The translations under genes and the position numbers were made by a program. Below are positions 8,290 through 61,168 of a DNA stretch of 64,000 nt, one piece after another. Source of the DNA: Desulfovibrionales bacterium (GTDB lineage: Bacteria > Desulfobacterota > Desulfovibrionia > Desulfovibrionales > Desulfovibrionaceae); the NCBI GenBank assembly GCA_030156255.1, contig JASGMV010000001.1, positions 46,935 through 110,934 of the forward strand, read 5' to 3'. The stretch's first letter is position 1. The number at the start of each line of letters is the position of its first letter. Below the pieces are notes generated by a model. It was given only the letters and a program-made list of their open reading frames with translations, was not told the origin of the DNA and ran no database searches.

Positions 8290-8352
8290 GGGCGTCCTCA
8301 GATGTCGAAGCGCCCGCGGGCCCTTCGGAAACAGTGTCGGGGCGCGGGCGGA

Positions 8353-8741: not shown

Positions 8742-8771
8742 TTGACAGTTTGCCGGCCTTGTGGATATTTA
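8742..8771 (+). promoter_or_regulatory. Candidate sigma70-type promoter for the adenylate cyclase gene
   Basis: TTGACA (8742-8747), 18 nt spacer, TATTTA (8766-8771), inside an AT-rich patch about 50 nt upstream of GTG 8819. Confidence 0.45.
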
Positions 8772-8818
8772 AAATAATAATAAGTAGGTCTGGAAACTCC
8801 AGGACAGGAGCCCATCCG

Positions 8819-45368: not shown

Positions 45369-45467
45369 CGACGTTTGATTTTTTGGGCGCTTCATTACTA
45401 TGATGCTTTGTTACGCCATTTCGACGATATTGAAAATTAAAGTCGATCTCAAAGGTTAAAGACGCAC

Positions 45468-47951
45468 ATGAGCAACGAGATGCTGATGGCCCTGGCCGGC
45501 CAGCCCAACGCAGGGAAGTCCACGGTCTTCAACATGCTGACGGGCGCCCGCCAGCATGTCGCCAACTACCCCGGCGTCACGGTGGAAAAGAAGGTCGGAC
45601 ACTTCAAACTGAACGGCCACAGCGTGGAGCTGGTGGACCTGCCCGGGACCTACAGTCTGACGTCGTACTCCATGGAGGAGCGCGTCGCCAGAGACGTTCT
45701 GCTGAACGGAAGCCCGGCCGTGGTGATCAACGTGGCCGACGCCTCGAACCTCAAACGCCACCTGCATCTGACGTTCCAGCTCATGGAGATGGGCGTCCCG
45801 TTGGTTATCGCCCTGAACATGATGGACGTGGCCGAAGAGCGCAATCAGCGCATCGACCACGAGCTTCTCGCCCGCAAGCTCGGCGTGGCCGTAGCGCCTT
45901 TGGTGGGCCGCAAGAACACCGGCAAGACCGGCCTGCTCGCCGCCATGATCCAGGCGGCGGGCGAGAGCCTCAACGCTCCGCTTCGACTGGACTACGGTCC
46001 GCTGGAGCAGTCCATTTTCGTTCTCGAAAAAGCGCTGGGCGACATTCCGGACCTGAACCTTCCCCACAGATGGTTGGCCCTCAAGCTGCTGGAGGCGGAC
46101 GAAAACGTCAAAGACAAAATTTCGGAGTTCGGCGACCCGGGAAAGGAAATTCTCGCCCTCGCCCAGGAGTTGTCCGCATCCTTTCAGAAGGCGACGGAGG
46201 AGACCGCGGATCGGTGGATCGAAAAACGGCGGTACGAAACCGCGGAGGCCATCGCCAAGGAATGCGTCCACGCCCCGGACGAAGGCGGCCCCACCTTCTC
46301 CGACAAAGTGGACCGCATCATCTGCCACAGGATTCTGGGCTACCCGATTCTGTTCGGGGTCCTGTACCTCATGTACTACCTGTCCATCGAGTTGGGCTAC
46401 GAATTGACCAACTACACATGGCCCGCGCTGGCCTGGGTCCGGGAGACCGCGGCGAGCGCGCTGCCCGCCGAAGGATTCGTCTCCGACCCCATGCTGCGCT
46501 CGCTCATCCTCTGGCTGGTGGACAGCATCAACGCGCTGCTCAACTACATTCCGATCTTTTTGATCCTGTTCGTTTACATCGCCTTCCTGGAGGACCTCGG
46601 CTACATGCCGCGCATGGCCTTTCTGCTGGACGCCTTTTTCCGGCGCTACGGCCTGCACGGGCAGTCCACGCTGCCGCTGGTTCTCGGCGGGGTCTACGTG
46701 GGAGGCTGCGCCGTCCCCGGCGTCATGGCCTGCCGCGCCGTGCCGGACGAACGCGCCAGGCTGGCCACCATTCTGGTGGTGCCCATGATGAACTGCCTGG
46801 CCAAGGTTCCCTTGTACATTCTGCTCATCGGCGTCTATTTCGCGGCGTACAAGGGGCAGGCCATGTTTTTCATCGCCACCATCACCATCCTGATGGCGCT
46901 GACCACCGCCAAACTGCTCAATCTGAGCGTGCTGCGGGACAAGGAGACGGCGCCGTTCATCATGGAGATGCCGCCCTACCATTCGCCCACGGTCAGCGGG
47001 GTTCTCCGTCGAGGAGTCGAGCGGGTCTGGATTTACGTCAAAAAAATCACCACGGTGGTGGCCGCAGTCTCCGTCATTCTGTTCGTGCTCATGCAGTTCC
47101 CCGGGCTGAGCTCCGAGCAGAAGGCGAACATGGACGCCCGGGCCCAAAAAGCCCAGACGGCCTTCATGCGGGCCGCGCAGAAAACGCCTTTGGGCGAGGC
47201 CGTCAATTCCCCGGAGAAGATCGACCAGCTGTTCGACTTTGAATCCCGTTACAAGTCCGCCCGCATGGGCGTTACGGACCAGAGCAAGGCCGACGGCATC
47301 GACGCCGACTTCCAGGAGGAAAACGCAAACTTCTTCGCCATTCTCAAGCCCGGTAAAGACAAGCAGGCCAAGACCGTCTCCCGGGCGTTCAAAAAACTTC
47401 GCCGCGCACGGCTGACCCTGCGCCTGGAGGCCAAGAACGAGATCATCAACCGCAGCATCCTGGGCGGGCTGGGCAAGTGGCTCGAACCCGTGACGCAGTA
47501 CGCGGGATTCACCTGGCGGGTGAACGTGGCGCTGCTTTCGGCCCTGGCCGCCAAGGAGAACACCGTCGCCACCCTCGGCGCCCTCTACCAACCGGTCGAC
47601 TCGGGCGACGAGGACAGCCCGAAGCAGGACAGCGCTCTGGAAAGCCGCATGGCCCGGCAGGAGGCCGGATTCACACCGCTCCACGCCCTGGCGCTGATGT
47701 TGTTCATGGCCCTGTATCCTCCGTGCATGGCCGCGACCATGGTGGTCAAGGTGCAGGCGGGATCTTGGAAATGGATGCTTTTCTCGCTGGTCTACATGAC
47801 CGCGCTCGGCTCCGTGGTCGCCTTTCTGATTTTTTCCGGAGGTTCGCTGCTGGGCCTCACGGGACTCGAGGCCATGGCCTGGTTCTACGCAGCTGCGGTG
47901 GCCGCAGTCATTGTCACCGGATTGATCAGGCCAAAACACGCCGAGACATGA
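45468..47951 (+). CDS. feoB: Ferrous iron transporter FeoB (copy 1)
   Basis: G-domain 'GQPNAGKST', 'NYPGVTVEKK', 'DLPGTYSL', 'ALNMMD', plus the polytopic membrane domain. Confidence 0.95.
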   Translation: MSNEMLMALAGQPNAGKSTVFNMLTGARQHVANYPGVTVEKKVGHFKLNGHSVELVDLPGTYSLTSYSMEERVARDVLLNGSPAVVINVADASNLKRHLHLTFQLMEMGVPLVIALNMMDVAEERNQRIDHELLARKLGVAVAPLVGRKNTGKTGLLAAMIQAAGESLNAPLRLDYGPLEQSIFVLEKALGDIPDLNLPHRWLALKLLEADENVKDKISEFGDPGKEILALAQELSASFQKATEETADRWIEKRRYETAEAIAKECVHAPDEGGPTFSDKVDRIICHRILGYPILFGVLYLMYYLSIELGYELTNYTWPALAWVRETAASALPAEGFVSDPMLRSLILWLVDSINALLNYIPIFLILFVYIAFLEDLGYMPRMAFLLDAFFRRYGLHGQSTLPLVLGGVYVGGCAVPGVMACRAVPDERARLATILVVPMMNCLAKVPLYILLIGVYFAAYKGQAMFFIATITILMALTTAKLLNLSVLRDKETAPFIMEMPPYHSPTVSGVLRRGVERVWIYVKKITTVVAAVSVILFVLMQFPGLSSEQKANMDARAQKAQTAFMRAAQKTPLGEAVNSPEKIDQLFDFESRYKSARMGVTDQSKADGIDADFQEENANFFAILKPGKDKQAKTVSRAFKKLRRARLTLRLEAKNEIINRSILGGLGKWLEPVTQYAGFTWRVNVALLSALAAKENTVATLGALYQPVDSGDEDSPKQDSALESRMARQEAGFTPLHALALMLFMALYPPCMAATMVVKVQAGSWKWMLFSLVYMTALGSVVAFLIFSGGSLLGLTGLEAMAWFYAAAVAAVIVTGLIRPKHAET

Positions 47952-48011
47952 GCGCTTTGATAATGCCGTGCAACGGCTCAACCCAACACCCCTAAAAGGA
48001 GGGAGGATTCA

Positions 48012-48329
48012 ATGAAACGTTTGTTCGTCGCGTTATTCGTCGCCGGGCTTGTCCTGGCCGCCCAACCGGGCATGGCGCACACGCCGCTGTTCTCTTGCTA
48101 CGACAACGGAGACGGGACCGTTTCCTGCGAAGGCGGCTTCTCCGACGGTTCCTCGGCCGCCGGCGTCCCCGTGCACCTCTTGGACGGCTCCGGGAAAAGT
48201 GTCCAGGAGCTGAAGCTGGATCAATTCAGCGAGATAACGTTCAAAAAACCCGCCGGCGACTATTCCGTCCAGTTCGACGCCGGAGAGGGGCATAGCATCA
48301 AGGTTCCCGGCAAAGACATTGTAGAATAA
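48012..48329 (+). CDS. Small secreted protein, predicted mature N-terminus His
   Basis: Strong SD GGAGGGAGG. Signal peptide '...AAQPGMA|HTPLF'. Two Cys and a beta-rich C-terminal part. Confidence 0.65.
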   Translation: MKRLFVALFVAGLVLAAQPGMAHTPLFSCYDNGDGTVSCEGGFSDGSSAAGVPVHLLDGSGKSVQELKLDQFSEITFKKPAGDYSVQFDAGEGHSIKVPGKDIVE

Positions 48330-48357
48330 CGGCTGAGGTGTTTTTTTTTACCTACTT

Positions 48358-48380
48358 ATTTGATAATGACATTCAATTTT
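48358..48380. promoter_or_regulatory. Fur-box-like site upstream of the DUF4198-type gene
   Basis: 'tatTTGATAATGACATTCAATttt' versus the consensus GATAATGATAATCATTATC. Confidence 0.5.
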
Positions 48381-48398
48381 AAATTCAGGAGGAGACGC

Positions 48399-49193
48399 AT
48401 GTACCGTTATCTCTTCGCAGCGCTGCTTGTGCTGTGCATGAGCGCCCCCGCCCAGGCCCACTTCCAAATGCTCTACACCCCCGAGGCTGCGCTGACCAAG
48501 GGCGGCGAGTTGGACCTCAAGCTCGTGTTTTCGCATCCCTTCGACGCCGGGCACACCATGAACATGGGCAAGCCGCTTCAGTTCTTCATGATCAACAAGG
48601 GCAAGAAAACCGATCTGATGAAGGATTTGAAGCCCATCAAGTGGCAAAGCCTGACCAACAGCGGCGATGCATACGAAGCGGAAGTCAAAGTCCGGAAAAT
48701 GGGCGACTACGTCTTCTGCCTGGTTCCCGAGCCGTATTTCGAGCCTGAGGAAGGAGCGTACATCCAGCAGATCACCAAGGTGATCATCAACAACTCCGGG
48801 CTGCCCACGGACTGGGACGCCGCGGTCGGACTGCCGGCGGAGATCGTTCCTCTGGACAAACCCTACGCCCTGTGGACCGGCAACGTGTTCCGCGGCGTGG
48901 TCATGGGCGACGGCAAGCCCGTTCCCGACGCCGAAATCGAGGTCGAATTCCTGAACCATCCTCCGGTTCCCGGCAAAAACATGTTCCAGAAGCAAGCCCT
49001 TGCCACGGCGCCGCAGGACGCATTCGTGACCCTGACCATCAAGGCCGACGCCAACGGCGAGTTCGCCTTCGGCCTCCCCAAGGCCGGCTGGTGGGGCTTC
49101 GCAGCCCTCGGCGTGGGACCGCTGAAAACCTACAAGGACAAGGACAATTCTCAGGACGCCGTCATTTGGGTCAAGGCTGTCGACATGAAGTAA
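48399..49193 (+). CDS. Periplasmic DUF4198-type metal-uptake protein (NikM/CbiK-associated family)
   Basis: Signal peptide '...SAPAQA|HFQMLY' giving an N-terminal His. Family-typical 'GDYVF', 'GNVFRG', 'DANGEFAF' blocks. Family assignment is from memory. Confidence 0.75.
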   Translation: MYRYLFAALLVLCMSAPAQAHFQMLYTPEAALTKGGELDLKLVFSHPFDAGHTMNMGKPLQFFMINKGKKTDLMKDLKPIKWQSLTNSGDAYEAEVKVRKMGDYVFCLVPEPYFEPEEGAYIQQITKVIINNSGLPTDWDAAVGLPAEIVPLDKPYALWTGNVFRGVVMGDGKPVPDAEIEVEFLNHPPVPGKNMFQKQALATAPQDAFVTLTIKADANGEFAFGLPKAGWWGFAALGVGPLKTYKDKDNSQDAVIWVKAVDMK

Positions 49194-49259
49194 CTCCTCC
49201 CACAACCCTGCAAACCAGGGCCCGGCTGCGTCCGGGCCCTGGTCCCCAAGGAGACGAAC

Positions 49260-50465
49260 ATGCGAAGCAAAATATGGGAGCTCAACGAGCTGCAATGCTC
49301 CATCCTCGGAACCTGCCTGAGCATCGGCGAACTGCGCCGAATCGCCAGGAAGTCCCGACTCGACCTGCCGGAGGACGCCACGGAGTTCCATATCCATTCG
49401 CTGTTCGTGGCGGTGTGCAAGGCCAACCGCTCCGAAGCCAAGGCCGTGAACAAGGCGCTGGATCGCAAGTTTTCTTCGGCCCTGCTCAAGTTCAACACCG
49501 GCAAGAGCGAAGAAGAGCTCCGAGACCTCTGGCGACAGGCCCGGGACAACGGAGACATTCCGGGTCCCTACTGGGCGATCATGTCCAACCCCCATCTTTC
49601 CGAGCAATTTCACGCCGAGGTCTTCGGCGAGGTGCACATGCTCTCCCACTTGGTGGGATCGGCGAACCGGGAGGACATTCGCCGGTTAAGCATCCTCGAG
49701 GAAGAACTCGAACGCGTACAACGACGCTGGGCCACGGCCAAAGCCGCCTACAGAAAACGCTTCAAGCGCCTGGAGGAGGAAAACAAGGAGGCTCGGCGCC
49801 AAATCGGAATTTTGGCCAAGGAGCTCGAAACGTACAAGACCAGGGCCGCGACCCTGGCCGATCCGACCCTGCACCAGGAAAACGAGGCCCTGCTGCGTAC
49901 GTTGTCGGTGCAGTCCGCCAGCCTGACGGAAGCGTCCATGCACAACGACCGTCTTTCACAGGAGCTGGACGACACCGCCCGGAAGCTGGAGCGGCTCGGT
50001 CGGGAGGTCCTCGAAAAAGACGCCGAAACAACCTTTCTGGAAAGCGAACTGCGGCGTCTGCTGGCGTCCATAGCCCCGGATCCCTGCCCCGGCGGTTGCT
50101 CCAAAGCCGGTACGGACGCCTGCCCCGGCCCCAACCTTTGCGGCAAAAGAATTCTTTACGTCGGCGGACGCACCAACATGGTGCAGCACTACCGGGCCTT
50201 GGTGGAGCGCCACGGAGGACGGTTCGAACACCACGACGGAGGCATGGAGGAGTCCCGGCAGTCCCTGCCCAAGATTCTGGGAGGGGTAGACGCCGTGGTC
50301 TGTCCCGTCGACTGCGTCAGCCACGACGCCTGCCAACGGGTCAAGGAGGCCTGCCGCAACGGCGTCAAGCCCTTGAAACTGGTTCGCAGCTCCGGGCTGT
50401 CCAGCCTGGCGAAAATTATCGACGAACTCGCCGACGCCGCCGAGTCCGCAAGGGAGGCGTTATGA
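49260..50465 (+). CDS. Coiled-coil protein with C-terminal DUF2325 domain
   Basis: C-terminal 'ILYVGGR..HYRALVERHGG.F.HHDGG....LPKILGGVDAVVCPVDCVSHDA...VK'. Long heptad-like central region. Confidence 0.75.
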   Translation: MRSKIWELNELQCSILGTCLSIGELRRIARKSRLDLPEDATEFHIHSLFVAVCKANRSEAKAVNKALDRKFSSALLKFNTGKSEEELRDLWRQARDNGDIPGPYWAIMSNPHLSEQFHAEVFGEVHMLSHLVGSANREDIRRLSILEEELERVQRRWATAKAAYRKRFKRLEEENKEARRQIGILAKELETYKTRAATLADPTLHQENEALLRTLSVQSASLTEASMHNDRLSQELDDTARKLERLGREVLEKDAETTFLESELRRLLASIAPDPCPGGCSKAGTDACPGPNLCGKRILYVGGRTNMVQHYRALVERHGGRFEHHDGGMEESRQSLPKILGGVDAVVCPVDCVSHDACQRVKEACRNGVKPLKLVRSSGLSSLAKIIDELADAAESAREAL

Positions 50466-50632
50466 CCTGCCGTTGCAGCATCGGGAGCCCCAAGCGCCCC
50501 GCTGATTTTTTGGCGCGCTCTTTCAAAGCCTTTCTGTCCAAGACGGCCAAAGAGCAGGAAACAATGCAACAACCCGAGCCAAAACAAATAACATCCCAAG
50601 CGTCCCGTCCAAAAGACGTCGACAACGTTTGA
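50462..50632 (+). CDS. Possible 56-aa CxC peptide translationally coupled to the DUF2325 gene
   Basis: Its ATG overlaps the upstream TGA (ATGA). 'MTCRCSIGSPKRP...'. No homology recognised. Confidence 0.3.
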   Translation: MTCRCSIGSPKRPADFLARSFKAFLSKTAKEQETMQQPEPKQITSQASRPKDVDNV

Positions 50633-50839
50633 GGGGCTTTTGAGATCGTTATGCAAGCAATAAGCGTTTATTCCCATCGGCCCGCCCTGTCCCGAAAATC
50701 CGGGAGAGGCATCGCAACGATGCCCCGCCTCCATTTCCTGAGACAGTTTCCGGCAACCTGAAGCATCAACACCCCGAGCGGGGCGGCAAGCCGTCCCGCT
50801 CCCAAAAGCGCCGGCCCCGCCGGCGTCATCGGAGGACGT

Positions 50840-51070
50840 ATGGTCACGCCAATGAGGAGCATGAGGGTCAACCAATGCGGCAAGATCCACGAAGTCAAAG
50901 CAAAAGGGGAGCTGGGCCGCCGAATCCGCGACATGGGCCTTGTGCCGGGAACGGATCTGGTCATCGTCGGTAGAGCCCCGCTCTACGATCCCGTCGCGAT
51001 CCGCATGAGAGGCTACACGTTGACCCTTCGAAACAGTGAAGCAGATTTGATTCAGGTGGAGGTTGATTAA
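50840..51070 (+). CDS. feoA: FeoA (copy 2)
   Basis: 'G.IHEVKAKGELGRRIRDMGLVPGTDLVIVGRAPLYDPVAIRMRGYTLTLRNSEADLIQV'. GGAGG precedes the ATG. Confidence 0.9.
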   Translation: MVTPMRSMRVNQCGKIHEVKAKGELGRRIRDMGLVPGTDLVIVGRAPLYDPVAIRMRGYTLTLRNSEADLIQVEVD

Positions 51071-51073
51071 CAA

Positions 51074-53254
51074 ATGGAGAAGATTCGCGTCGCCGTCGCA
51101 GGCCAGCCCAACTGCGGGAAAAGCACCATGTTCAACGCCATCACCGGGGCGACCGCGCGCGTCGGCAACTATCCCGGCATCACGGTCGACCGGCTGGAAG
51201 GCCGTTATCGCATGGACGGATTCGACATTCAGTTGGTGGATTTGCCCGGGACCTACTCGCTCACCTCGTACTCCCTGGAGGAGGTCGTCGCCCGCGACAT
51301 GATCGTGGACGAACGCCCCGACGCCGTGCTGTGCATGATCGATGCGACGGCTCTGGAGCGGAGCCTCTACCTGGTGATCCAGCTCATGGAAATGGAAATT
51401 CCCGTGGTCATCGGCCTGAACATGATGGACGAGGCCAAGCGCAAGGGAATCCGCATCGACACGGCCAAGTTGTCCCGACTTCTGGGCGTTCCCGTGGTGG
51501 AATGCGTCGCCCGCCTCGGCGTGGGCAAAGACCTGCTCATGAAGGAAGTTGCGGCTACGGCGGCCAAACACGCCCTCAATTTCGAACCGATCAAAATCTC
51601 GTACGGCGCGGACCTCGATCCGTTCGTCGACCGGATGGTGGAGTTGATCGAGGCGGAAATTCCCAAGGGAAACCGTCCGCCCGCAAGGTGGCTGGCGACG
51701 AAGCTCCTCGAAGGCGATGAAATCATCGCCGAGAGGATGCACGCGCACGGCTCCATAGCCGACAGGCTGGAAAAAATCACCGCCGAAGCCGAAAAAGCGA
51801 TGGAGACGCGCACGGGCTCCTATCCGGAAGCCATCATCGCGGACAGGCGCTACGGTTTCATCAACGGCCTCGTGCGCCAGGACGTTCTGTTCCGCGAAAG
51901 CGACCTGCGCTTCGACTTCTCCGACAAGGTCGACAAGGTCCTCACGCACCGCATTCTGGGACCGCTCATCATGCTGGGCGTGCTGTGGACCATGTTCTAC
52001 ATCACCTTCACGCTGGGAGCCGCGCCGCAAGGCTGGGTCGAAGACGGCTTCGGCTGGCTCGCCTACCTGGGATCCACCTACATCCCCGAAGGACTGCTCC
52101 AGTCCCTGATCGTCTCCGGAATCATCGACGGCGTGGGCGCGGTGGTCAGTTTCGCTCCGCTCATTCTGATCATGTTCGTCATGCTGGTCTTCCTGGAGGA
52201 CCTCGGCTACATGGCCCGCGTCGCCTACATGGTGGACAAGGTGTTCCGCATCTTCGGGCTGCACGGCATGTCCGTGATGCCGCTGGTGATGTCCGGCGGC
52301 ATGCCCGGCGGCTGCGCGGTGCCCGGCGTCATGGCCGCCAGAACGCTGCGCAGCCCTCGCGAACGGTTGGCGACCATCCTGACCGCGCCGTTCATGGTCT
52401 GCGGCGCCAAGACCACGGCCTACATCATGCTCATCGCGGCATTCTTCCCGCAGAACGCCACGCTGGCCATGTTTCTCGTCGTGCTCACGTCCTGGTTCTT
52501 CGTGCTGGTTGTCGCCCGCATCCTGCGCTCGACGGTCATCAGGGGCGAGCATACGCCTTTCGTCATGGAGCTTCCTCCGTACCGGCTGCCCACGGTGCGA
52601 GGCGTGGCGATCCACGCCTGGGACCGGGTCTGGCAATATTTGAAGAAGGCCGGCACGGTCATTCTGGCGGTCTCCATCTTCATGTGGGCGATGATGACCT
52701 TCCCCCAGTTGCCGGAATCGGAAACCGCGGAATTCGACGCGCAGCGCGAACAAGTCGCCCAACAAGTCCAGGCGGAAAACTCCGGCATGGACGCCGCGCA
52801 AATCCAGGAGCTGATCGACCAGAGAACCCTGGCTATCGACGAGTTGGAGAGTGAAACCGCTCTCAAGAACTCCATCGCCGGGCGCGTCAGCATGGCCATC
52901 AAGCCGGTGACGGATCTCGCCGGATTCCCCTGGCAGGCCAACATCGCCTTCGTGGGCGCCTTCGCGGCCAAGGAAGTCTTCGTTTCGACCATGTCCACGG
53001 CCTATTCCATGGGCGACGTCGATCCCGAGGAATCCGCGTCCTTGAGTGAAAAAATCGGAAACGACAAAGCCTGGACGCTTCCCGTCGTCTTCAGCGTGTT
53101 CCTGTTCATGCTGATGTATACGCCGTGCATGGTTACCGTTGTGGCCATTGCGCGGGAATCCAATTGGAAATGGGCGGCTTTCTCGGTGTGGGGAATGCTG
53201 CTCTTCGCATTCGCTGTCTCCACGGTCGTTTATCAAGTGGGATCAGCGCTATAA
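51074..53254 (+). CDS. feoB: Ferrous iron transporter FeoB (copy 2)
   Basis: 'GQPNCGKST', 'NYPGITVDR', 'DLPGTYSL', 'GLNMMD', plus membrane domain. Starts 3 nt after feoA2. Confidence 0.95.
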   Translation: MEKIRVAVAGQPNCGKSTMFNAITGATARVGNYPGITVDRLEGRYRMDGFDIQLVDLPGTYSLTSYSLEEVVARDMIVDERPDAVLCMIDATALERSLYLVIQLMEMEIPVVIGLNMMDEAKRKGIRIDTAKLSRLLGVPVVECVARLGVGKDLLMKEVAATAAKHALNFEPIKISYGADLDPFVDRMVELIEAEIPKGNRPPARWLATKLLEGDEIIAERMHAHGSIADRLEKITAEAEKAMETRTGSYPEAIIADRRYGFINGLVRQDVLFRESDLRFDFSDKVDKVLTHRILGPLIMLGVLWTMFYITFTLGAAPQGWVEDGFGWLAYLGSTYIPEGLLQSLIVSGIIDGVGAVVSFAPLILIMFVMLVFLEDLGYMARVAYMVDKVFRIFGLHGMSVMPLVMSGGMPGGCAVPGVMAARTLRSPRERLATILTAPFMVCGAKTTAYIMLIAAFFPQNATLAMFLVVLTSWFFVLVVARILRSTVIRGEHTPFVMELPPYRLPTVRGVAIHAWDRVWQYLKKAGTVILAVSIFMWAMMTFPQLPESETAEFDAQREQVAQQVQAENSGMDAAQIQELIDQRTLAIDELESETALKNSIAGRVSMAIKPVTDLAGFPWQANIAFVGAFAAKEVFVSTMSTAYSMGDVDPEESASLSEKIGNDKAWTLPVVFSVFLFMLMYTPCMVTVVAIARESNWKWAAFSVWGMLLFAFAVSTVVYQVGSAL

Positions 53255-53283
53255 TCCTCTATTGCTTTAATGGAGGTGTTACG

Positions 53284-53709
53284 ATGCAGGCCGCCAAATT
53301 ACAGACAACGCCTGGCCGATCCAAAAAGTCGATGTTCGACTATCGTGAAATCAGGTCTTTCGAACTTGCGGACGACCTGGTCACCATAGCGAGCAGATTG
53401 CACAAAATCTACATCCGGATGGACGCGCACAACGTCTTGCAGAAGTTGAAACATCGGACGGTCGATCTCTCCATCAATGTGGTCGAGGCGACCTCGCTGC
53501 AAGACCATCCGGAAAAGGCGCTGCTCTTTGAGATGTCTTTCGAGTCACTCAAGGACGTTCGCTACGAATTGAGCAAAGCACGCACGCTCGGCCTCTGCAG
53601 CGAACCGGAGTTTTTCCACTCCTACAAGATCGTCAATGAATTGGAGCGGAACCTTTGTTCGCTCATAGCCTCATCCCAACGCAAAAAGCTGCTCGCAGCC
53701 CAAGGATAA
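53284..53709 (+). CDS. Divergent four-helix-bundle protein (23S rRNA-IVS-protein-like family)
   Basis: 'LKHRTVDLSINVVEATS', 'FEMSFESLKDVRYELSKARTLG' fit the family pattern I recall (sQlrRAa.SI..NIaEG / GS..El...l). GGAGG precedes ATG 53284. Confidence 0.55.
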   Translation: MQAAKLQTTPGRSKKSMFDYREIRSFELADDLVTIASRLHKIYIRMDAHNVLQKLKHRTVDLSINVVEATSLQDHPEKALLFEMSFESLKDVRYELSKARTLGLCSEPEFFHSYKIVNELERNLCSLIASSQRKKLLAAQG

Positions 53710-53723
53710 GTAACGAGCAATCG

Positions 53724-56054
53724 ATGCCGAAAAACAAAGACATCATCATCCGACACGACATCAGGGGCCGGATGCGCCTGAAGATCCGGTCCCTGAAAAA
53801 CAAAGAGGCCGCCTCGAACGTGACGGCCTCTCTGCAACGCCTCGACGGGTTGCTCTGGGTCCGGGCCAACCCGGCCTGCGCCAGCCTGGTCTTGGGCTAC
53901 AACCCGGAGGACATCCAACGGCGGGCGCTCCTGGAGCGCGTCAGCGCCGCCGTCGGGGCGCCGCCGCCGGTGCAGTCGACGGCGCCCTGCGGCGCGAAAA
54001 CCAAGGAAAAACGCCCGGTGCGGCGGGCCTTCAGGCGGTTCGCAGCCATCACGGCCGTGCTGGGCGCGGCCGTGTTCAGGTCCTCGGTCCTGGGCCTCGC
54101 CGTCGGCCAGACCCTGGCCAGCCCACTGGGAGTCGCCGGCCTGATCTTCAGCGCCCCGCTGGTCCGAAGCGGGATCAGGAAGCTCAAAAGCGGGCGCCTG
54201 AGCCTGGACGGCTTTCTGGCGGCCGGCGCCGTCGCGGCCATCACAGCCGGCGAGGCGCTGACCGCCTTTGAAATCTTGTGGATCAACTCCGGCTCCGAGC
54301 TGCTGACGGCCTGGATCGCGGAGCGCTCCCGCCGTAGCATCGCCGAAATCCTCGAAATCACGTCCCACCATACCTTCGTGCTGCAGGACGGCGTGGAGGT
54401 GGAGCGGGCCGTGAGCGAGGTGCGGCCTCAAGAGATCGTGGTGCTGCACACCGGAGAGAAAATCTCGGTGGACGGCGTGATCGTCGAAGGCGAGGCCGAG
54501 ATCAACGAGGCCCCGCTCACCGGCCGGGAGGAGCTTGTCAACCGAGGCGTCGGCGAGACGGTTTACGCCGGAACCTTCGTGTACAAAGGCGTGATCCAGG
54601 TGCGGGCCGAAAAAGTCGGCGACGCCACGTATCTGGCCCGCGTCATGCGCAAGGTTCAGGACGCCCTGGAGAATCGGGCGCCCATCGAGGGCGTGGCCGA
54701 CCAGTTGGCTCAAAGCCTGGTCCGGATCGGATTCGCTACGACGGCCGCAACCTTCCTGTTGACGGGCAGCGCCTGGCGCGCCTTCACGGTGCTGTTGGTC
54801 ATGGCCTGCCCGTGCGCCACGGTGCTCGCGGCCTCCACGGCCGTCAGCGCGGCCATCAGCGCGGCGGCCAGGCGGCGCATCCTCATCAAGGGCGGCCGCT
54901 ACCTGGAGGAAATCGGCAAATGCGACACGGTCTGTTTCGACAAGACCGGCACGCTGACCACGGCCCGCCCCATGGCGGCGCTCATCCTGCCCGAGGACGG
55001 CGTCGACGAACGGGAGCTGCTCCAATTGGCCTGCTCGGCCGAAATCCACAACCACCACCCGCTGGCCCAGGCCCTCAAGGAGGCCGCCGCGCGCCGAGGC
55101 TTGGAGCCCATCCCGCACGCCGTGTGCGTCTACTTCATGGGCATGGGCATGCGGGCGGTCATCCAGGAGCGGGAAATCCTGGTGGGCAACGACAAGCTCG
55201 CCGAAACCTTCGGCGTCGACTTCGGCGCCCGGACGCCGGAAATCCAGCGTCTCAGAAACCAAGGATATACCGTGCTCCAGGTCTACCGCGACGCGGAGCC
55301 CATAGGGCTTCTGGCCTTCGCCTCCCAGCTTCGGCCCGAGGCTGCGAACGTAATCGAACGCTTGAAGTCCATGGGCGTCAAGCGGTTCATGCTCGTCACC
55401 GGCGACGAGTACGGCTCGGCGAAACCTCTGGCGGACAAGCTCGGCATTACGGAAGTGCAGGCCTCCATCATGCCCGAAGACAAGGCCCGTTTCGTGGAAC
55501 TCGAAATGGAGCAAGGCCGCAAGGTGCTCATGGTCGGCGACGGCGTCAACGACGCCCTGGCGTTGAGCCGGGCCGACGTCGGCGCGGCCATGGGGACGAG
55601 CGGCTCCGAGGTCGCCATCGAGGCCGCGGACATCGCCTTGGTCAACGACGACCTGGAGGCGCTGGCCGACGTCTACGACCTGAGCCGGCGAACCCTGCGC
55701 GTAGTCCGGCAGAACTTCTGGATCGCCACGGGCTCCAACATCGCCGGCGCGGCCCTGGGCGCTCTCGGGCTTTTGTCCCCCGCGGCCGCCGGGCTCGTGC
55801 ACATCGGGCACACCCTGGGCGTTCTGGCCAATTCGTCCCGACTTCTCTCCTTCTCCACCACCAATTCGCCCGCCAAGGGCGCCGCCACCGGAGCGATGCA
55901 TGGACTTCCAAACACTAGCCAACCTGCGGCGCTATTTGACCGTCAAACACCACATTCCGGGCAGAATCCGCCTGAAGTTCAATCCGGCCGTGACGAAGCA
56001 CCCGGAAGTGAAAAAACTGATGAACGGCAATCACGAATTGCCTGCGGGTGTTGA
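53724..56054 (+). CDS. P1B-type heavy-metal ATPase, CPC type, with non-CxxC 'RGRMRLK' N-domain
   Basis: 'ACPCA' in TM4, 'FDKTGTLT', 'GDGVNDALAL', 'TGRE' in place of TGES, last TM 'HIGHTLGVLANSSRLL'. The N-terminus 'IIIRHDIRGRMRLKI' has no CxxC. Confidence 0.9.
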   Translation: MPKNKDIIIRHDIRGRMRLKIRSLKNKEAASNVTASLQRLDGLLWVRANPACASLVLGYNPEDIQRRALLERVSAAVGAPPPVQSTAPCGAKTKEKRPVRRAFRRFAAITAVLGAAVFRSSVLGLAVGQTLASPLGVAGLIFSAPLVRSGIRKLKSGRLSLDGFLAAGAVAAITAGEALTAFEILWINSGSELLTAWIAERSRRSIAEILEITSHHTFVLQDGVEVERAVSEVRPQEIVVLHTGEKISVDGVIVEGEAEINEAPLTGREELVNRGVGETVYAGTFVYKGVIQVRAEKVGDATYLARVMRKVQDALENRAPIEGVADQLAQSLVRIGFATTAATFLLTGSAWRAFTVLLVMACPCATVLAASTAVSAAISAAARRRILIKGGRYLEEIGKCDTVCFDKTGTLTTARPMAALILPEDGVDERELLQLACSAEIHNHHPLAQALKEAAARRGLEPIPHAVCVYFMGMGMRAVIQEREILVGNDKLAETFGVDFGARTPEIQRLRNQGYTVLQVYRDAEPIGLLAFASQLRPEAANVIERLKSMGVKRFMLVTGDEYGSAKPLADKLGITEVQASIMPEDKARFVELEMEQGRKVLMVGDGVNDALALSRADVGAAMGTSGSEVAIEAADIALVNDDLEALADVYDLSRRTLRVVRQNFWIATGSNIAGAALGALGLLSPAAAGLVHIGHTLGVLANSSRLLSFSTTNSPAKGAATGAMHGLPNTSQPAALFDRQTPHSGQNPPEVQSGRDEAPGSEKTDERQSRIACGC

Positions 56055-56217
56055 AAGCTATCGGATCAATCCCATGGCTCTCTCCCTCATTATCGAATAC
56101 GACGCCGAGCGCATCGATCCGGACCTGCTCGAAGAGCTCGCCGCGACTCGAAACGACGAACGCGCGTCCGCCATTGTCGAAGAACTTTATCAAACCCTGA
56201 TGCATCCAACCCAATAA
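55900..56217 (+). CDS. Stand-alone 'HIPGRIRLKF' HMA-like domain protein
   Basis: Shares the N-domain of both ATPases ('HHIPGRIRLKF....V..L......GV.SYRINPMALSLIIEYD'). Overlaps the ATPase-1 tail by 155 nt in another frame. Confidence 0.65.
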   Translation: MDFQTLANLRRYLTVKHHIPGRIRLKFNPAVTKHPEVKKLMNGNHELPAGVESYRINPMALSLIIEYDAERIDPDLLEELAATRNDERASAIVEELYQTLMHPTQ

Positions 56218-56229
56218 GGAGGCGATACG

Positions 56230-57180
56230 ATGAGCAGTCAGCACATGTCCATGCAACCCCAAACAGGCTCCTCCGGCTGCGGCGAAGACGCGGCCGGAGG
56301 CGGCGCCGGGCCGGCCATGCAGCCCCAACAAGGCCAGGGAGGCTTCAACGGCTCGGTCGCGCAGGGAGCGTTCATGGGACAAGGCCAAGCCCAAGGGCAG
56401 AACCCGAGCATGGGCCAGGGGCAAGCGGCCGGCCACCCCCAAGAGGCGGCCCAAGGCGCCTACATGGGGCAAGGTCAGGACGGCGCCCAAGGCCCCGACA
56501 TGGGGCAGCCCCATTTCTCCGCGCAAATTCCCGGCGCCGCGCCCTACCAGGGGCAACCCGGAGCCTTCGTCTACGGACAGCCCATGGCCGGCTACTACTC
56601 CATGGGCGAACAGCAGGCCGGCAGGCAAGCCGGCATGCAGGGATTCGGCGGCGACGCCATGGGCGCGCAAGGCGGATACGCTCCTCAGGCGGGCGCCATG
56701 GGCGGATACGCCGGCGCCTTCGCGCAAGCGCCCGGAAACGGCGGCGCTCCGGGGATGAATCCCGGGCAAGCCATGTATGGGGGCCAGGTTTTCGCCGGCC
56801 AGCAGGGCTCGGCCATGGACTACGCCCAGGCCATGGGCCGGCAATACGCCGCGAGCGCTCCGGGAGTCCAGATTCCCGGCGCATCTCCGGGATACGGACA
56901 GGAAAACCGGTACGGCGAGCTTTACGGATTGATCCAGGAAGCGGCCAACGGCAATCCTGACGTTTCCAAATTTCTTAATTTCTTCACCCAATCCAGCACG
57001 GAATTCTGGAAAGGCGCTTTGATCGGAACCGGCCTGACCCTGCTTTTGACCAACGATACGGTCAAGGGCGCCCTCTCCGGAGCCTTCGCCAGCGTGTGGG
57101 GGGCCTTTGGCAAGAGCGCCGAGGAAATGGAGGAAGAAGAAGACCGTAAAGCCGAGCAGCGCCTCGCCAACAAGGAGTAA
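56230..57180 (+). CDS. Gly/Gln/Met/Ala-rich low-complexity protein with C-terminal membrane-anchor domain
   Basis: AAGGAGG precedes the ATG. About 235 aa of '(F/Y)MGQGQ'-type repeats, then 'FWKGALIGTGLTLLLTNDTVKGALSGAFASVWGAF' and an acidic tail. Confidence 0.7.
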   Translation: MSSQHMSMQPQTGSSGCGEDAAGGGAGPAMQPQQGQGGFNGSVAQGAFMGQGQAQGQNPSMGQGQAAGHPQEAAQGAYMGQGQDGAQGPDMGQPHFSAQIPGAAPYQGQPGAFVYGQPMAGYYSMGEQQAGRQAGMQGFGGDAMGAQGGYAPQAGAMGGYAGAFAQAPGNGGAPGMNPGQAMYGGQVFAGQQGSAMDYAQAMGRQYAASAPGVQIPGASPGYGQENRYGELYGLIQEAANGNPDVSKFLNFFTQSSTEFWKGALIGTGLTLLLTNDTVKGALSGAFASVWGAFGKSAEEMEEEEDRKAEQRLANKE

Positions 57181-57183
57181 AAC

Positions 57184-57594
57184 ATGAGCATCGTCAGACA
57201 GACCAGCATCGCGCCCCGGGCCTCCCTGGCCATGGGAGCGGCAGGGGCCATCGTAGGCGGCGCCGTGGCCGCGGCCCGAGATATCGACAAAGTCAAAAAA
57301 GGCGACATGACCCGCGAAGAGGCGGTCAAGGACGTACTGAAGGAATCCGGAACCACGGGACTGGCGACAGCCGCGGCGACGGCGGTGGTCAGCTCCCTGG
57401 GCCTTACCGGCGTTCTGTCATTGGCCGGCCTCGTGGCTGTGGCCGTGGGAACCAAACGCCTGGCGGACAAGGCGTTGGCGAAGTGTGAAACGAAACGCCT
57501 GGCCGAAGGCGAATCGGAGGCCAGCGAACCCCTGAAATCCGCGCCGGCCAAAAAATCCACAACCAAAAAAGACGGCGCAGCGGCCAAGGCCTAG
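57184..57594 (+). CDS. MamC-like two-TM Gly/Ala-rich membrane protein
   Basis: 'GAIVGGAVAAARDIDKVKKGDMTREEAVKDVLKESGTTGLATAAATAV' resembles '[47 protein letters not shown]' of MamC as I recall it. Confidence 0.6.
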   Translation: MSIVRQTSIAPRASLAMGAAGAIVGGAVAAARDIDKVKKGDMTREEAVKDVLKESGTTGLATAAATAVVSSLGLTGVLSLAGLVAVAVGTKRLADKALAKCETKRLAEGESEASEPLKSAPAKKSTTKKDGAAAKA

Positions 57595-57614
57595 CCGCCC
57601 GAGGAGTATCCACC

Positions 57615-57944
57615 ATGAGCCAAGACACCAAGACCCCGGCGCTTCCGCCCGCGGACTACAACTACCAGTACAACTACGACCCGAGCTACGCCCAGTCCCA
57701 GGCCGCGGCCTATCCCTACTACAACCAGCCGTCCGCGGTGAAGAGCTGGTTCGACTTCAGCAACGCGAACTACGCCAAGGGCTTCGTCATCGGCGCCGGC
57801 GTGGCCCTGGTCCTGGCCAACCCGGCCGTGCAAAAGGCCATCGTCTCCGGAGCCGTCAAGCTCTGGTCCGGCGTCCAGGGCGGCGTGGAAGAGGTCAAAG
57901 AACGCATTCACGACATCAAAGCCGAAATGAGCTCCAAGGAGTAG
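57615..57944 (+). CDS. Tyr/Asn/Gln-rich N-terminus + membrane-anchor domain, paralogue of 56230..57180
   Basis: 'YAKGFVIGAGVALVLANPAVQKAIVSGAVKLWSGV' aligns with the C-domain of the upstream protein. GAGGAG precedes the ATG. Confidence 0.65.
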   Translation: MSQDTKTPALPPADYNYQYNYDPSYAQSQAAAYPYYNQPSAVKSWFDFSNANYAKGFVIGAGVALVLANPAVQKAIVSGAVKLWSGVQGGVEEVKERIHDIKAEMSSKE

Positions 57945-57954
57945 TCCCTCCTGA

Positions 57955-58006
57955 GCGGCCCGGGCTCGCCCCACCCCCGTCCACCCCAGGCCCGGGCCGC
58001 TTTTTT
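57955..58006 (+). terminator. Internal intrinsic terminator/attenuator inside the cluster
   Basis: gcggcccgggc (57955-65) pairs with gcccgggccgc (57990-58000) across a 24-nt C-rich loop, followed by TTTTTT (58001-06). Confidence 0.55.
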
Positions 58007-58034
58007 CCGATGTCGCGACGACAGGAGTAAACGT

Positions 58035-58286
58035 ATGAGTTCAACGAAAAAACGTACGGGCCAGACCGGTAGTCCGTCCAAATCCGGGACTTCCGGCCTG
58101 AGTACGGCGCAATCCCGGGCTCTGGCCAAGGCCGGCATGACCGCAAGCCTCGGCGTGCTGATCTGGACCGGATTCGATCAAAGCCGCGGCGCCCGCAGGC
58201 TGCACCGGCTGGCGGGCGTTTCCCTGGTCGGTTTCAGCGTCTGGCACCATATGCTCTACCCCAAAAAATCCGGAAATTCCTCATGA
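58035..58286 (+). CDS. Small two-TM membrane protein with His pair, coupled to the downstream ATPase
   Basis: AGGAG lies 7 nt before the ATG. 'MTASLGVLIWTGF' and 'LAGVSLVGFSVWHHMLY' are hydrophobic segments. The stop overlaps the ATPase start (ATGA). Confidence 0.55.
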   Translation: MSSTKKRTGQTGSPSKSGTSGLSTAQSRALAKAGMTASLGVLIWTGFDQSRGARRLHRLAGVSLVGFSVWHHMLYPKKSGNSS

Positions 58287-60409
58287 CCCGACGGCCCCCT
58301 ACCAACGGCTTGCGAATCATCCACCAGATTCCCGGGCGGGTGCGCCTGCACGGGGCGCGGCTCAGGGACCCCAATCTGGACATCGATTATCTGAGAGCCC
58401 TTCTGGAAGCCATGCCCGGCGTGCATTCCGTCCGGATCAACCAGGCGGCCGGAAGCGTGGTCATCCGACACGACAACGCAACCCATTGCGTGGACGACTT
58501 CATGCTGGCCCTTTCCCGGCTTCCGAAGGACGCCTATCTGCCCAATACGGAGGCGGACACCGGGCCGGACTTGCTGGAAGTCGCGGCCCACGCCGGAGCC
58601 GCCGCCCTGACGCCGTTTCTCCCCATGCCGATCCAAGCGGCGATGAGTTGGTTCCTCGCCGCGCCGTCCCTGGTCAAGGGGGCGGAGACCCTGCTCGCAC
58701 GGGGATTGAAAATCGAGGTGCTGGACGGAACGGTCAAGCTCCTGGCCCTGCTGCGCCAGGACTACTTCACCACCAACACCGTGGGCGCCCTGCTGGTTCT
58801 CGGCGAATACGTGGAGCGCTCTGCCGAGCGAAAAACCAACGATCTGCTCAAGAACCTGCTCCAGCCCCAGGTGGAGACCGTCAAGGTCGAGCGGGACGGC
58901 GTGGAGCGAATCATTCCCTTCGACCAGGCGCTCATCGGCGACGCGGTCCTGGTCGGCCCCGGGGAGCTCATCCCCGTGGACGGCGTGGTCGCGGAGGGGG
59001 AAGCGTCGGTCAACACCAGCTCGGTCACGGGGGAATCCGCCCCGGTCCACGCCAAACCGGGCGACAAGGCGATCTCCGGCTCCGTAGTGGAGGACGGCAA
59101 GATCAAGATCACGGCCGAGTCGGTCGGGGCGGAAACCAGCATGGCCCGCATTTCCGGATTCCTGGAAAAGTCCCTGCGCACGAAGTCCACGCATCAGAAA
59201 CGCACGGAAGAGCTGGCCGACAAGCTGGTCCCGCTGACCTTCGGCGCGGGACTCGGGCTGTACGCGCTCACCGGAGATTTGCGCCGCGCCGCCTCGGTGC
59301 TGACGGTGGACTACTCCTGCGCCATCAAGCTGAGCTATCCCGTGGCCGTCCGCTCGGCCATGTACGCGGCCGGCCGCGAGGGCGTCCTGATCAAGGGCGC
59401 CGCCAGCCTGGAGCGCCTGGCTTCGGTGGACGCGTTCGTCTTCGACAAGACCGGCACCCTTACCCACGGGGAATTGCAGGTCACGGACGTAGTCTCCCTG
59501 TCCGCATTCGAAGAAAACGAAATATTGGCCCTCGCGGCCGGAGCGGAGGCCCACTACGGCCATCCCGTGGCCGCGGCCGTGGTTTCGCGGGCCAGGGCCC
59601 TGGGCCTCAAATTCCCGGACATGAGCAACGTGGACTTCATCGTGGCCCACGGCGTGTCCGCCTACGTGGACGGCGCCCGCGTCCTGGTGGGCAGCCGCCA
59701 CTTCATCCACGACGACGAAGCCGTGGACTGCTCCCGCGCCGATACGGCGGCCAGCCGGCTTCGGGATCAGGGCAAGTCCCTGCTCTACGTAGCCAGAGAC
59801 GGAGAACTGGCGGGGCTCATCGCCATGCGCGACGACCTGCGCCTTGAAGCGGCCGAAAGCCTGCAGGCGCTCAAGGACATGGGCGTGGTGAAACTCGTCG
59901 TCCTTACCGGCGACCACGAAAGAACCGCCCAGGCCGTCTGCTCGCAGCTGCCGATGCTCGACGAAGTGCACGCGGAGCTCAAGCCCGAAGACAAGGCCGC
60001 CGTGGTGGAGAAACTCAAGGCCGAGGGGCGCCGGATCGCCTTTGTGGGCGACGGCGTCAACGACGCCCCGTCGCTTTTGGCCGCGGACGTGGGCGTATGC
60101 ATGCCCTCGGGCGCGGACCTCGCCCGGGACGCGGCCCAGGTCGTGCTCATCAAGGACGACATCCGCGGGCTGGCCCTGGCCTTGGGCGTCGCCCAGCGAA
60201 CCATTCAAACCCTGCAGCGGTGCGTGTGGAGTTCGGTGGGCGTCAACAGCGCCGTCATGGCTCTGGCCGGCGCCGGCCTGCTGCCCACGGCGCTTTCCGC
60301 AGCCGCCCACAACGGCTCAACCCTCGGCATTCTCGCCTACGCCGCCCTGCGCGGCGTCAACACCCCAGCCACAGAGGACATTCGCCCCCCCAGGAGTTTT
60401 CCATGTTGA
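58283..60409 (+). CDS. fezB: P1B-6-like heavy-metal ATPase (FezB-like), 'SCA' TM4 motif
   Basis: 'DYSCAIKLS' TM4 motif, 'SVTGES', 'FDKTGTLT', 'GDGVNDAPSL', last TM 'AAHNGSTLG'. N-domain 'IIHQIPGRVRLHG' without CxxC. Subclass and symbol rest on my recollection of the SCA signature. Confidence 0.85.
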   Translation: MTRRPPTNGLRIIHQIPGRVRLHGARLRDPNLDIDYLRALLEAMPGVHSVRINQAAGSVVIRHDNATHCVDDFMLALSRLPKDAYLPNTEADTGPDLLEVAAHAGAAALTPFLPMPIQAAMSWFLAAPSLVKGAETLLARGLKIEVLDGTVKLLALLRQDYFTTNTVGALLVLGEYVERSAERKTNDLLKNLLQPQVETVKVERDGVERIIPFDQALIGDAVLVGPGELIPVDGVVAEGEASVNTSSVTGESAPVHAKPGDKAISGSVVEDGKIKITAESVGAETSMARISGFLEKSLRTKSTHQKRTEELADKLVPLTFGAGLGLYALTGDLRRAASVLTVDYSCAIKLSYPVAVRSAMYAAGREGVLIKGAASLERLASVDAFVFDKTGTLTHGELQVTDVVSLSAFEENEILALAAGAEAHYGHPVAAAVVSRARALGLKFPDMSNVDFIVAHGVSAYVDGARVLVGSRHFIHDDEAVDCSRADTAASRLRDQGKSLLYVARDGELAGLIAMRDDLRLEAAESLQALKDMGVVKLVVLTGDHERTAQAVCSQLPMLDEVHAELKPEDKAAVVEKLKAEGRRIAFVGDGVNDAPSLLAADVGVCMPSGADLARDAAQVVLIKDDIRGLALALGVAQRTIQTLQRCVWSSVGVNSAVMALAGAGLLPTALSAAAHNGSTLGILAYAALRGVNTPATEDIRPPRSFPC

Positions 60410-61134
60410 GCAGCATCGACAAAGCGCCCGTGAACACCCCTCTCGTCATCGCCGAGATCGTTCATCAGGATCTGGCCGACAGGCTCGGGCGGTTGGACGT
60501 ACAGCCCGGCGACGAAGTCATGCGTATGGATGAAGAGGCGCTTTTCGGGCCGGTGCGCGTCCGCGGCCCCATGGGCGAAGTCATCCTGGCCGCGGGCATG
60601 GCCGCCAAAATCATCGCCCACCACGACGACGGGCACAAGACTCCGGTGCTGGAAATGAACCCCGGAGAGCAAGGCCACGTCGAGGGGTTGATCTGCGGCT
60701 CCGCCCTGGAGCAGGGCCTCGCCGTGCTGGGCATCCGCGAAAACGACAACCTGACCATGGTGCGCCGCATCCCGCCCATGGAGTACCAAGTGGTGGTGGA
60801 CGGCAAACGCGTCCACCTCTCCGAAGGCGCCGCGGCCAAGGTTTGGGTCAAGATGGGCGAGACCTTCACCCAACTGGCCTCGGCCGGCGCCGGGAGGCCC
60901 TTGCGCGTAGAGCTTCTGCTCGGAGGCAAACGGGCCTACGCCCATCTCGAATCTCTGGGCGTGGCGCCCGGAAAGACCGTGGTCGTGGAGCGGGTGGACC
61001 CGGCCCAGAGGGTGGGCCGCGAAGGCGTGGACCAAGTGGTCCTGGGCGCCGCCTCGGGCCTGCGGGTCTACCTCCGCCCCGACCAGGCCCAGAAAATTCT
61101 GGTGCGGGTGAAGGACGACAAAACGCGCGCCTGA
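60403..61134 (+). CDS. Protein made of three tandem FeoA-like domains
   Basis: Three ~75-aa units, each with the 'G....V..L...........L..LG(I/V).(P/E).G/N...V' FeoA pattern. CAGGAG precedes ATG 60403. 7-nt overlap with the ATPase. Confidence 0.8.
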   Translation: MLSSIDKAPVNTPLVIAEIVHQDLADRLGRLDVQPGDEVMRMDEEALFGPVRVRGPMGEVILAAGMAAKIIAHHDDGHKTPVLEMNPGEQGHVEGLICGSALEQGLAVLGIRENDNLTMVRRIPPMEYQVVVDGKRVHLSEGAAAKVWVKMGETFTQLASAGAGRPLRVELLLGGKRAYAHLESLGVAPGKTVVVERVDPAQRVGREGVDQVVLGAASGLRVYLRPDQAQKILVRVKDDKTRA

Positions 61135-61168
61135 AGCAGCAGCGGAAGCGGGCGGCCGCGCTTTCGGT

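Follow-up and report, generated by a model that had tools for sequence, protein, structure and literature searches.

The open reading frame (ORF) at positions 57184–57594 (+ strand) of the 64,000-nucleotide stretch analysed here (the window; contig JASGMV010000001.1 of a Desulfovibrionales bacterium) encodes a predicted small membrane protein of 136 amino acids, hereafter called the target. By sequence comparison it belongs to the MamC superfamily, which includes the magnetosome protein MamC (Mms13), and it is classed as a FezF-type (Group 4-1) protein, encoded in a large ferrosome (fez) cluster of what is taken to be a non-magnetotactic sulfate reducer. The assignment draws on the ORF itself, profile searches, BLASTP, hhalign, an AlphaFold2 (AF2) model and shuffled control sequences. 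Bacteria are known to form two kinds of iron organelle bounded by lipid, ferrosomes and magnetosomes, which have been presented as genetically distinct. The target itself is one more member of a catalogued family, and it is the homology between the ferrosome and the magnetosome protein that is noteworthy.

The ORF is a real gene, with over 100 homologues, and the single MamC-like ORF within the window. A good ribosome-binding site, AAGGAG, is found 7 nt before the ATG codon, the upstream stop codon lies 3 nt before the start, and the next gene starts 20 nt past the stop. The GC content at third codon positions is 0.75, as in the neighbouring genes (window GC 62 %). A second, independent assembly of this DNA (L001) also has it as a called gene, and an identical protein has been deposited from a Desulfovibrionales metagenome-assembled genome (MAG; P0001). 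Promoter and terminator sites in the region 50400–62800 were no commoner than expected by chance.

The predicted protein has a short N-terminus with two Arg residues, followed by an uncharged Gly/Ala-rich helix (residues 14–31) carrying the Gly-zipper G18/G21/G25/G26. A loop of 25 residues (32–56) contains seven Lys/Arg and seven Asp/Glu, E46, D50 and E54 among them, and leads to an uncharged hydrophobic stretch of 34 residues (57–90) and a Lys-rich tail (91–136, window positions 57454–57594). The hydropathy profile shows the two hydrophobic stretches 14–31 and 57–90, and these hydropathy and charge segments bear out the layout proposed in the original prediction, in which two Gly/Ala-rich helices are joined by a charged loop.

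Homology to MamC and distinction from genuine MamC

Genuine MamC sequences were retrieved with an M. gryphiswaldense query which is 97 % identical to a database entry. The hits included Mmc1_2265 of Magnetococcus MC-1, the Magnetofaba protein and several Magnetospirillum MamCs, and a set of 24 genuine MamCs was used both as a hidden Markov model (HMM) and as a profile. The profile of the target family aligned with that of the 24 genuine MamCs at 98.9 % probability (hhalign, E = 1.2e-17) over 89 gapless columns, and the resemblance thus passed the profile-profile comparison on which the original prediction had staked it. The NCBIfam MamC model matched the target with an E-value of 1.2e-13, covering 84 of its 97 profile positions. 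Pfam PF26373 ("MamC") was present as a precomputed hit on the target, not marked as weak, and as a precomputed tag on all 40 first-round and all 120 second-round homologues; a local Pfam-A scan of the target with a release lacking PF26373 gave only a sub-threshold DUF6232 match. In BLASTP the target was 36 % identical to MC-1 Mmc1_2265 over 76 gap-free amino acids (E = 6e-6) and 32 % identical to an MSR-1-type MamC over 85 amino acids. These alignments against genuine MamC reproduced the motif string which had originally been read by eye.

Both proteins are short and biased in composition, and the HMMER bias term was 9.4 bits, so a convergent or purely compositional similarity, with no common ancestry, was considered. 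The target scored 46.5 bits against the genuine-MamC HMM. Two thousand global shuffles of the target gave a mean of -3.1 and a maximum of 11.4 bits, and a further 2000 shuffles, which left the composition of the helix, loop and tail segments unchanged, gave a mean of -0.3 (sd 5.4) and a maximum of 22.1 bits. As shuffled sequences reached at most 22.1 bits and 89 columns align without a gap, with common motifs in the loop and after the second hydrophobic stretch (KE, GLATA, KYxWD), the resemblance is assigned to homology and not to Gly/Ala bias. The compositional explanation was rejected by the shuffle control and the gapless alignment and is regarded as highly improbable.

The target and MamC (NF038051, PF26373) agree in layout: in both, the Gly-zipper helix has 18 residues, the charged loop 25 and the hydrophobic stretch 34, and the hydropathy and charge layout of the target is identical to that of MC-1 MamC. 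They further share the E-x-x-x-D and KE loop residues, the GLATA motif and the K-Y-x-W-D family motif, at an overall identity of 32–36 %. The columns common to the fez-type and MamC-type groups are G21, G25, A29, A31, A47, K53-E54, G59, A61-T62-A63, G73, S79, K91-Y92 and D95, and in each group 92 % or more of the sequences have G21 and G25. The target differs from MamC in having KRLAD at the position of the KYxWD motif, in its basic instead of acidic C-terminal tail, in its location in a fez cluster with P1B ATPases and not in a mamGFDC or mamAB cluster, and in its host, a Desulfovibrionales bacterium in whose window no mam genes were found.

When 1.84 billion cluster representatives were searched exhaustively with HMMER, 262 clusters reached E ≤ 1e-3 and 121 clusters reached E ≤ 1e-10, which makes this a protein family of modest size. 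A search of PDB sequences with the target gave only chimeras of maltose-binding protein with the MamC loop (6eqz, 5e7u and 5mm3, E = 0.03–0.7) and no full-length structure. A tblastn search of plasmids with the target gave no match.

The target matches PF26373 over the whole domain and has in common with MamC the hydrophobic segments and a loop of about 21–25 residues carrying the aligned Glu/Asp pair. The NCBIfam model NF038051.2, an equivalog for MamC, has a curated cut-off of 100 bits. The target scored 51.2 bits against it, fez-cluster relatives 58–72 and genuine MamCs 134; a divergent MamC encoded among magnetosome genes reached 95.6. Since its 51 bits compare with a cut-off of 100, the target is classed as a homologue of the MamC superfamily and not as a MamC orthologue. 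Pfam scans of the larger ORFs of the window revealed no mam genes, and the neighbours of the target are fez and feo genes, in keeping with the predicted location outside any magnetosome island. The mamC gene has been reported only from magnetotactic Pseudomonadota (PMC9840458), in agreement with what had earlier been stated about its confinement to them.

A genuine MamC orthologue, in an organism which makes or once made magnetosomes, would fit the name "magnetosome protein MamC" which the Prokaryotic Genome Annotation Pipeline (PGAP) gives to close relatives. The score of 51 bits against the 100-bit cut-off and the 134 bits of genuine MamCs, the absence of mam genes from the scans of the window, the invariable fez context and the restriction of mamC to magnetotactic Pseudomonadota (PMC9840458) all speak against it. 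For the window this explanation was refuted by score, context and the lack of detected mam genes, and there is very little chance that it is correct.

The PGAP name is carried by fez-cluster proteins of non-magnetotactic Desulfobacterota, namely P0076, P0082 (L033, 8001–8351), P0102 and P0103. Proteins so named, for example that of Desulfonema magnum, scored only 58–72 bits against the 100-bit cut-off of NF038051.2. The names are probably legacy over-annotations and could mislead screens for magnetotaxis.

The FezF slot and the fez module

Grant et al. tabulate "Group 4", a set of conserved fez proteins, in Supplementary Table 6 of their preprint (bioRxiv 10.1101/2020.01.10.902569). Group 4-1 includes LZ24DRAFT_00721 (112 aa) of Desulfobotulus alkaliphilus (10.1101/2020.01.10.902569), to which the MamC-like ORF of D. 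alkaliphilus ASO4-4 (L011, 9959–10297, 112 aa) corresponds by length and gene number; this orthologue is 61 % identical to the target (E = 4e-24). Sputcn32_3195 of Shewanella putrefaciens CN-32 is FezF, a Group 4-2 protein with two transmembrane domains, and the Shewanella fez order is C-D-E-F-G-B (10.1101/2020.01.10.902569), in which Sputcn32_3196, 3195, 3194 and 3193 make up the part GxxxG protein, FezF, GxxxG protein and FezB. The gene order in the window matches this. The target shares with Shewanella FezF the slot (HMA_2, GxxxG, gene, GxxxG, FezB) and the small size, and its two hydrophobic stretches may be transmembrane segments like the two described for FezF; Shewanella FezF differs in subgroup (4-2) and length (92 aa), and the comparison with it covers slot and description. 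Given the fezB-cluster context, the slot between two GxxxG proteins and the relation to a listed Group 4-1 member, the target is assigned to the FezF-type, Group 4-1 proteins of large ferrosome clusters.

No function of Group 4 and no relationship to MamC are stated in the preprint (10.1101/2020.01.10.902569). A link between ferrosomes and MamC was not found in the preprint, its supplement or the literature searched, a search which did not extend to the journal version. The link is new to that literature and already implicit in the Pfam PF26373 and PGAP labels.

A survey of loci with one genome per species gave 17 loci, all from Desulfobacterota, which together with Desulfonema ishimotonii made 18. 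The order of the eight genes of the module around the MamC-like gene was the same in all 18 of these related loci, and in each of them, as in the window, the gene is located between two genes for GxxxG proteins, upstream of fezB. Six more divergent members of the family, including the Desulfonema magnum protein, are also encoded in fez-type clusters. One divergent MamC-type protein (P0264) adjoins MamI/E/K/M/O/A/B and not fez genes. Further FezF-slot proteins were taken from fez clusters on replicons in a plasmid collection (Vibrio, Arcobacter, Azospirillum and Cereibacter). In Vibrio and Arcobacter, too, the gene is placed between genes for GxxxG proteins and upstream of fezB. Of these, the Vibrio (Group 4-4 type, 101 aa) and Arcobacter (Group 4-3 type, 117 aa) proteins matched MamC profiles well, with E-values of 7e-13 and 2e-11 against the genuine-MamC HMM.

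Some other arrangements were observed. A MAG from Gammaproteobacteria has an orphan gene for a 91-aa MamC-type protein without mam or fez neighbours (L024, 9001–9276). In L032 a member of a subclade scoring better with the genuine-MamC HMM (1994–2434) is situated 1.4 kb from a fez-like trio (3871–7855) which encodes a P1B ATPase, an HMA_2 protein and a DUF5132-like protein; the trio is divergently oriented and does not share an operon with the MamC-like gene, and the arrangement may be an intermediate one. Desulfonema ishimotonii has two MamC-domain genes in one fez region (L002, 4851–5291 and 10001–10486), the second of which has a weak PF26373 hit, is located 5 kb upstream and adjoins an ATPase of the FezH type.

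The module in the window is tightly packed, with partly overlapping genes in the order FezH-type ATPase, HMA_2 protein, 316-aa GxxxG protein, target, 109-aa GxxxG protein, 83-aa protein, FezB-type ATPase and FeoA-domain protein, all on the + strand. The FezH-type P1B ATPase (53724–56054) combines an R-rich HMA_2 domain at its N-terminus with ACPCATV in transmembrane helix (TM) 4 and HIGHT in TM6, and its motifs agree with those which Grant et al. tabulate for FezH in their supplement. The FezB-type P1B-6 ATPase (58283–60409) has an R-rich HMA_2 N-terminus (HQIPGRVRLHG), DYSCAIK in TM4 and HNGST in TM6, matching the FezB table. With an SCA ATPase of the FezB type and a CPC ATPase of the FezH type identified from these motif tables, the operon is indeed of the ferrosome type, as had been proposed. 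The kinds of gene present also agree with the large fez clusters described by Grant et al. (10.1101/2020.01.10.902569).

An ORF for a 105-aa HMA_2 protein (55900–56217, HMA_2 E = 5e-11) has 155 nt in common with the 3' end of the FezH-type ATPase gene. Its product is FezD-like (Group 3-1-like), with an R-rich motif, VKHHIPGRIRLKF, comparable to that of Sputcn32_3197. The ORF was not called on assembly L001 and is conserved in 12 of the 18 related loci, and it represents either a genuine gene that overlaps its neighbour or the trace of a frameshift in the tail of the ATPase.

The two Group 2-type proteins of the window are encoded by the genes flanking the target. The product of the upstream gene (56230–57180) has 316 aa; its N-region is of low complexity and rich in Q/G/M, and a GxxxG helix, EFWKGALIGTGLTLLL, lies at its C-terminus. 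It has a FezE-like slot (Group 2 type), which is occupied in all 18 loci. The downstream gene (57615–57944) encodes a 109-aa GxxxG protein, KGFVIGAGVALVL, which is FezG-like (Group 2-1 type) according to its ORF, Pfam and the comparison of loci, and has weak similarity to YtxH and DUF5132; equivalent genes are annotated as YtxH in Azospirillum and Arcobacter. A phmmer comparison relates the 316-aa to the 109-aa protein (E = 1e-6), and the 316-aa protein has equivalents in Vibrio and Cereibacter. Neither flanking protein resembled MamD, MamG or Mms6 in an NCBIfam scan. FezA and the Group 2 proteins (FezE, FezG) are like the target in being small, hydrophobic and fez-encoded, with Gly-based helix-packing motifs, but the Group 2 proteins are a separate family with a single hydrophobic segment and no match to MamC profiles. 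Among the FezE-slot proteins (56230–57180 of the window; L029, 5694–6419; L030, 4653–5207) only the C-terminal EFWKGA..G....L helix is kept, and the composition of the N-region varies by lineage, being Q/G/M-rich here, Met/His/Pro-rich in Vibrio and Pro/Gly/Trp-rich in Cereibacter.

The 83-aa small membrane protein (58035–58286), whose stop codon overlaps the start of the FezB-type ATPase gene, is present in all 18 loci and is the positional counterpart of the Group 3-3 small proteins in the gene order of the supplement of Grant et al. A 243-aa FeoA-domain protein (60403–61134), identified by Pfam and by comparison of the loci, is encoded by the last gene of the module. Directly upstream of the module are the genes for a ferrous iron importer (50840–53254, + strand), annotated as FeoA (76 aa) and FeoB (726 aa), and convergent with its end is a gene on the - strand (61169–62536) for a 455-aa membrane protein which, by profiles and annotation, resembles metal transporters of the NicO/DsbD_2 type.

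Further upstream of the fez module (45063–50465, + strand) there is another FeoA/FeoB pair, of 101 and 827 aa, and after it come a 105-aa ORF and genes for DUF4198 and DUF2325 proteins; the association of DUF2325 with FeoB recurs in several related loci. Elsewhere in the window (8165–12715, + strand) one protein of 1516 aa contains both pentapeptide repeats and a class-I adenylate cyclase (Adenyl_cycl_N and Adenylate_cycl).

Predicted structure and proposed role

Our preferred interpretation, held with moderate confidence, is that the target is a FezF-type small membrane protein of a large fez cluster, homologous to MamC, which acts as an accessory component with a lumenal loop facing iron or the granule. 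The protein would insert in the ferrosome membrane as a helical hairpin, as MamC does, with both termini in the cytoplasm, a topology in which the Lys-rich C-terminal tail would agree with the positive-inside rule and the amphipathic 25-residue loop would face the lumen of the organelle. The Gly-zipper of helix 1 would pack either with itself or with the GxxxG proteins encoded next to it, and the acidic ladder of E46, D50 and E54 would bind iron or touch the iron-phosphate granule. The protein may in this way tune the nucleation or size of the granule while not being essential.

In the alignment E46 and D50 of the target correspond to the Glu/Asp pair of MamC, and E54 to an invariant Glu. The pair, "Glu66/Asp70" in MamC, is held to bind iron and to template magnetite (PMC6584501). 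The loop has a fixed length of 25 residues in both the fez-type and the MamC-type groups. The AF2 model, based on an alignment of 124 sequences, had a mean predicted local distance difference test score (pLDDT) of 71 (core 70–89) and consists of a helical hairpin with helices at 12–38, 44–71 and 77–107; the "loop" is modelled as a helix-turn-helix and the second hydrophobic stretch is kinked at 72–76. A Foldseek search of the model against the PDB gave nothing below E = 3, only very weak matches to hairpins of the ATP-synthase c-subunit and TraT.

Several observations weigh against this interpretation. The break which AF2 introduces in the second hydrophobic stretch at 72–76 may reflect a re-entrant hairpin with a different topology. 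E46, D50 and E54 are conserved in 57, 49 and 83 % of fez-type sequences, respectively, so that conservation of the Glu/Asp pair is only moderate, and basic and acidic residues are equal in number in the loop of the target. The C-terminal tail is basic in 74 % of fez-type proteins (mean net charge +3.2) and acidic in 87 % of MamC-type proteins (mean -4.3); the fez-type tails are rich in Lys, Ala and Pro, and some match the histone-H1-like Pfam family PF07382. Because the charges are opposite, the cytoplasmic partners of the two kinds of tail probably differ. The slot proteins of Azospirillum (Group 4-2 type) and Cereibacter (Group 4-9 type) match the MamC profile weakly. In the neighbour-joining (NJ) analysis the exact MamC-type split was recovered in 4 of 60 bootstrap replicates (mean Jaccard 0.81), which sets no direction of descent. 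Finally, the localisation, topology and iron binding proposed for FezF-type proteins are carried over from MamC by analogy.

The protein is probably accessory, because the minimal fez operons of D. magneticus (fezABC) and C. difficile (fezAB) lack a FezF-type gene and because FezA together with FezB is enough to produce ferrosomes in E. coli. D. magneticus has no Group 4 entry, and ferrosome proteomics in this species detected FezA, FezB and FezC only (10.1101/2020.01.10.902569).

As the gene is always located between two P1B ATPase genes, the target might instead be a regulatory or assembly subunit of FezB and FezH without contact with the mineral, by analogy with KdpF, sarcolipin/phospholamban and FXYD proteins. 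These are also small membrane proteins encoded or acting beside a P-type ATPase, but they have no similarity in sequence or fold to the target and serve as an analogy for the mechanism only. The small size and the Gly-zipper helices would be apt for helix-helix packing with a pump, and one basal MamC-type member adjoins a fez-like ATPase without the remaining module. However, the homologue MamC works in clusters with genes for cation diffusion facilitators (MamB/M) and not a P1B ATPase, and PMC9840458, citing Scheffel et al. 2008, counts it among the major proteins of the magnetosome, an abundance ill-suited to a stoichiometric pump regulator. In addition, the most conserved non-glycine residues are located in the extramembrane loop, and ferrosomes form from FezA and FezB without a FezF-type protein. 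A role as a pump subunit is therefore considered unlikely.

The Gly-zipper could also serve a purely structural purpose, the target forming oligomers with the GxxxG proteins which curve or stabilise the membrane, with the loop as a mere spacer. The high conservation of G21 and G25 in both groups and the GxxxG proteins on both sides in every locus are consistent with such a scaffold, as are the roles in curvature or interaction which Grant et al. propose for GxxxG motifs (10.1101/2020.01.10.902569) and the sole, very weak structural likeness of the AF2 model, to the Gly-rich c-ring hairpins of ATP synthase. On the other side, the loop keeps its fixed length, and A47, D50, K53 and E54 are conserved across otherwise divergent groups, which argues for a specific function of the loop. 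The scaffold is accordingly given a low probability, and an accessory protein with an iron- or granule-facing loop remains our preferred interpretation.

Evolution and implications

In clustering and in an unrooted NJ tree the MamC-type sequences were found together among far more diverse fez-type sequences. The fez-type members show conserved synteny across Desulfobacterota, Campylobacterota and Gammaproteobacteria. We propose, from this distribution and not from the tree, that the MamC of magnetotactic Pseudomonadota may have been recruited from the FezF-type family, since mamC is confined to these bacteria while the core mamAB genes are shared with lineages without mamC. That MamC was so recruited, and that the FezF loop is a general module facing iron minerals, which would template or cap ferrous-phosphate granules, is put forward tentatively, as a possibility to which we give somewhat less than even weight.

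The original prediction held that a MamC-like protein in a ferrosome-type operon would link the two iron organelles evolutionarily or mechanistically. The evolutionary part has held, through the homology to MamC (hhalign E = 1.2e-17); the mechanistic part is an inference.

To our knowledge, no factor controlling the mineral or the membrane of ferrosomes has been characterised, and FezF-type proteins are candidates for such a role. Automatic "MamC" annotations in genomes of Desulfobacterota, Campylobacterota and of the Vibrio type mark ferrosome clusters and not magnetotaxis. The common family of small membrane proteins provides a concrete molecular bridge between ferrosomes and magnetosomes, and its fez-type members suggest an origin for mamC in the magnetotactic Pseudomonadota to which it is restricted. 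If the recruitment is correct, ferrosomes would have been the donor of parts for the layer of magnetosome proteins which controls crystal size, and MamC, the abundant signature protein of alphaproteobacterial-type magnetosome membranes, would not have arisen de novo. If the loop is indeed a mineral-facing module, it would offer a first handle on the control of mineral size in ferrosomes.

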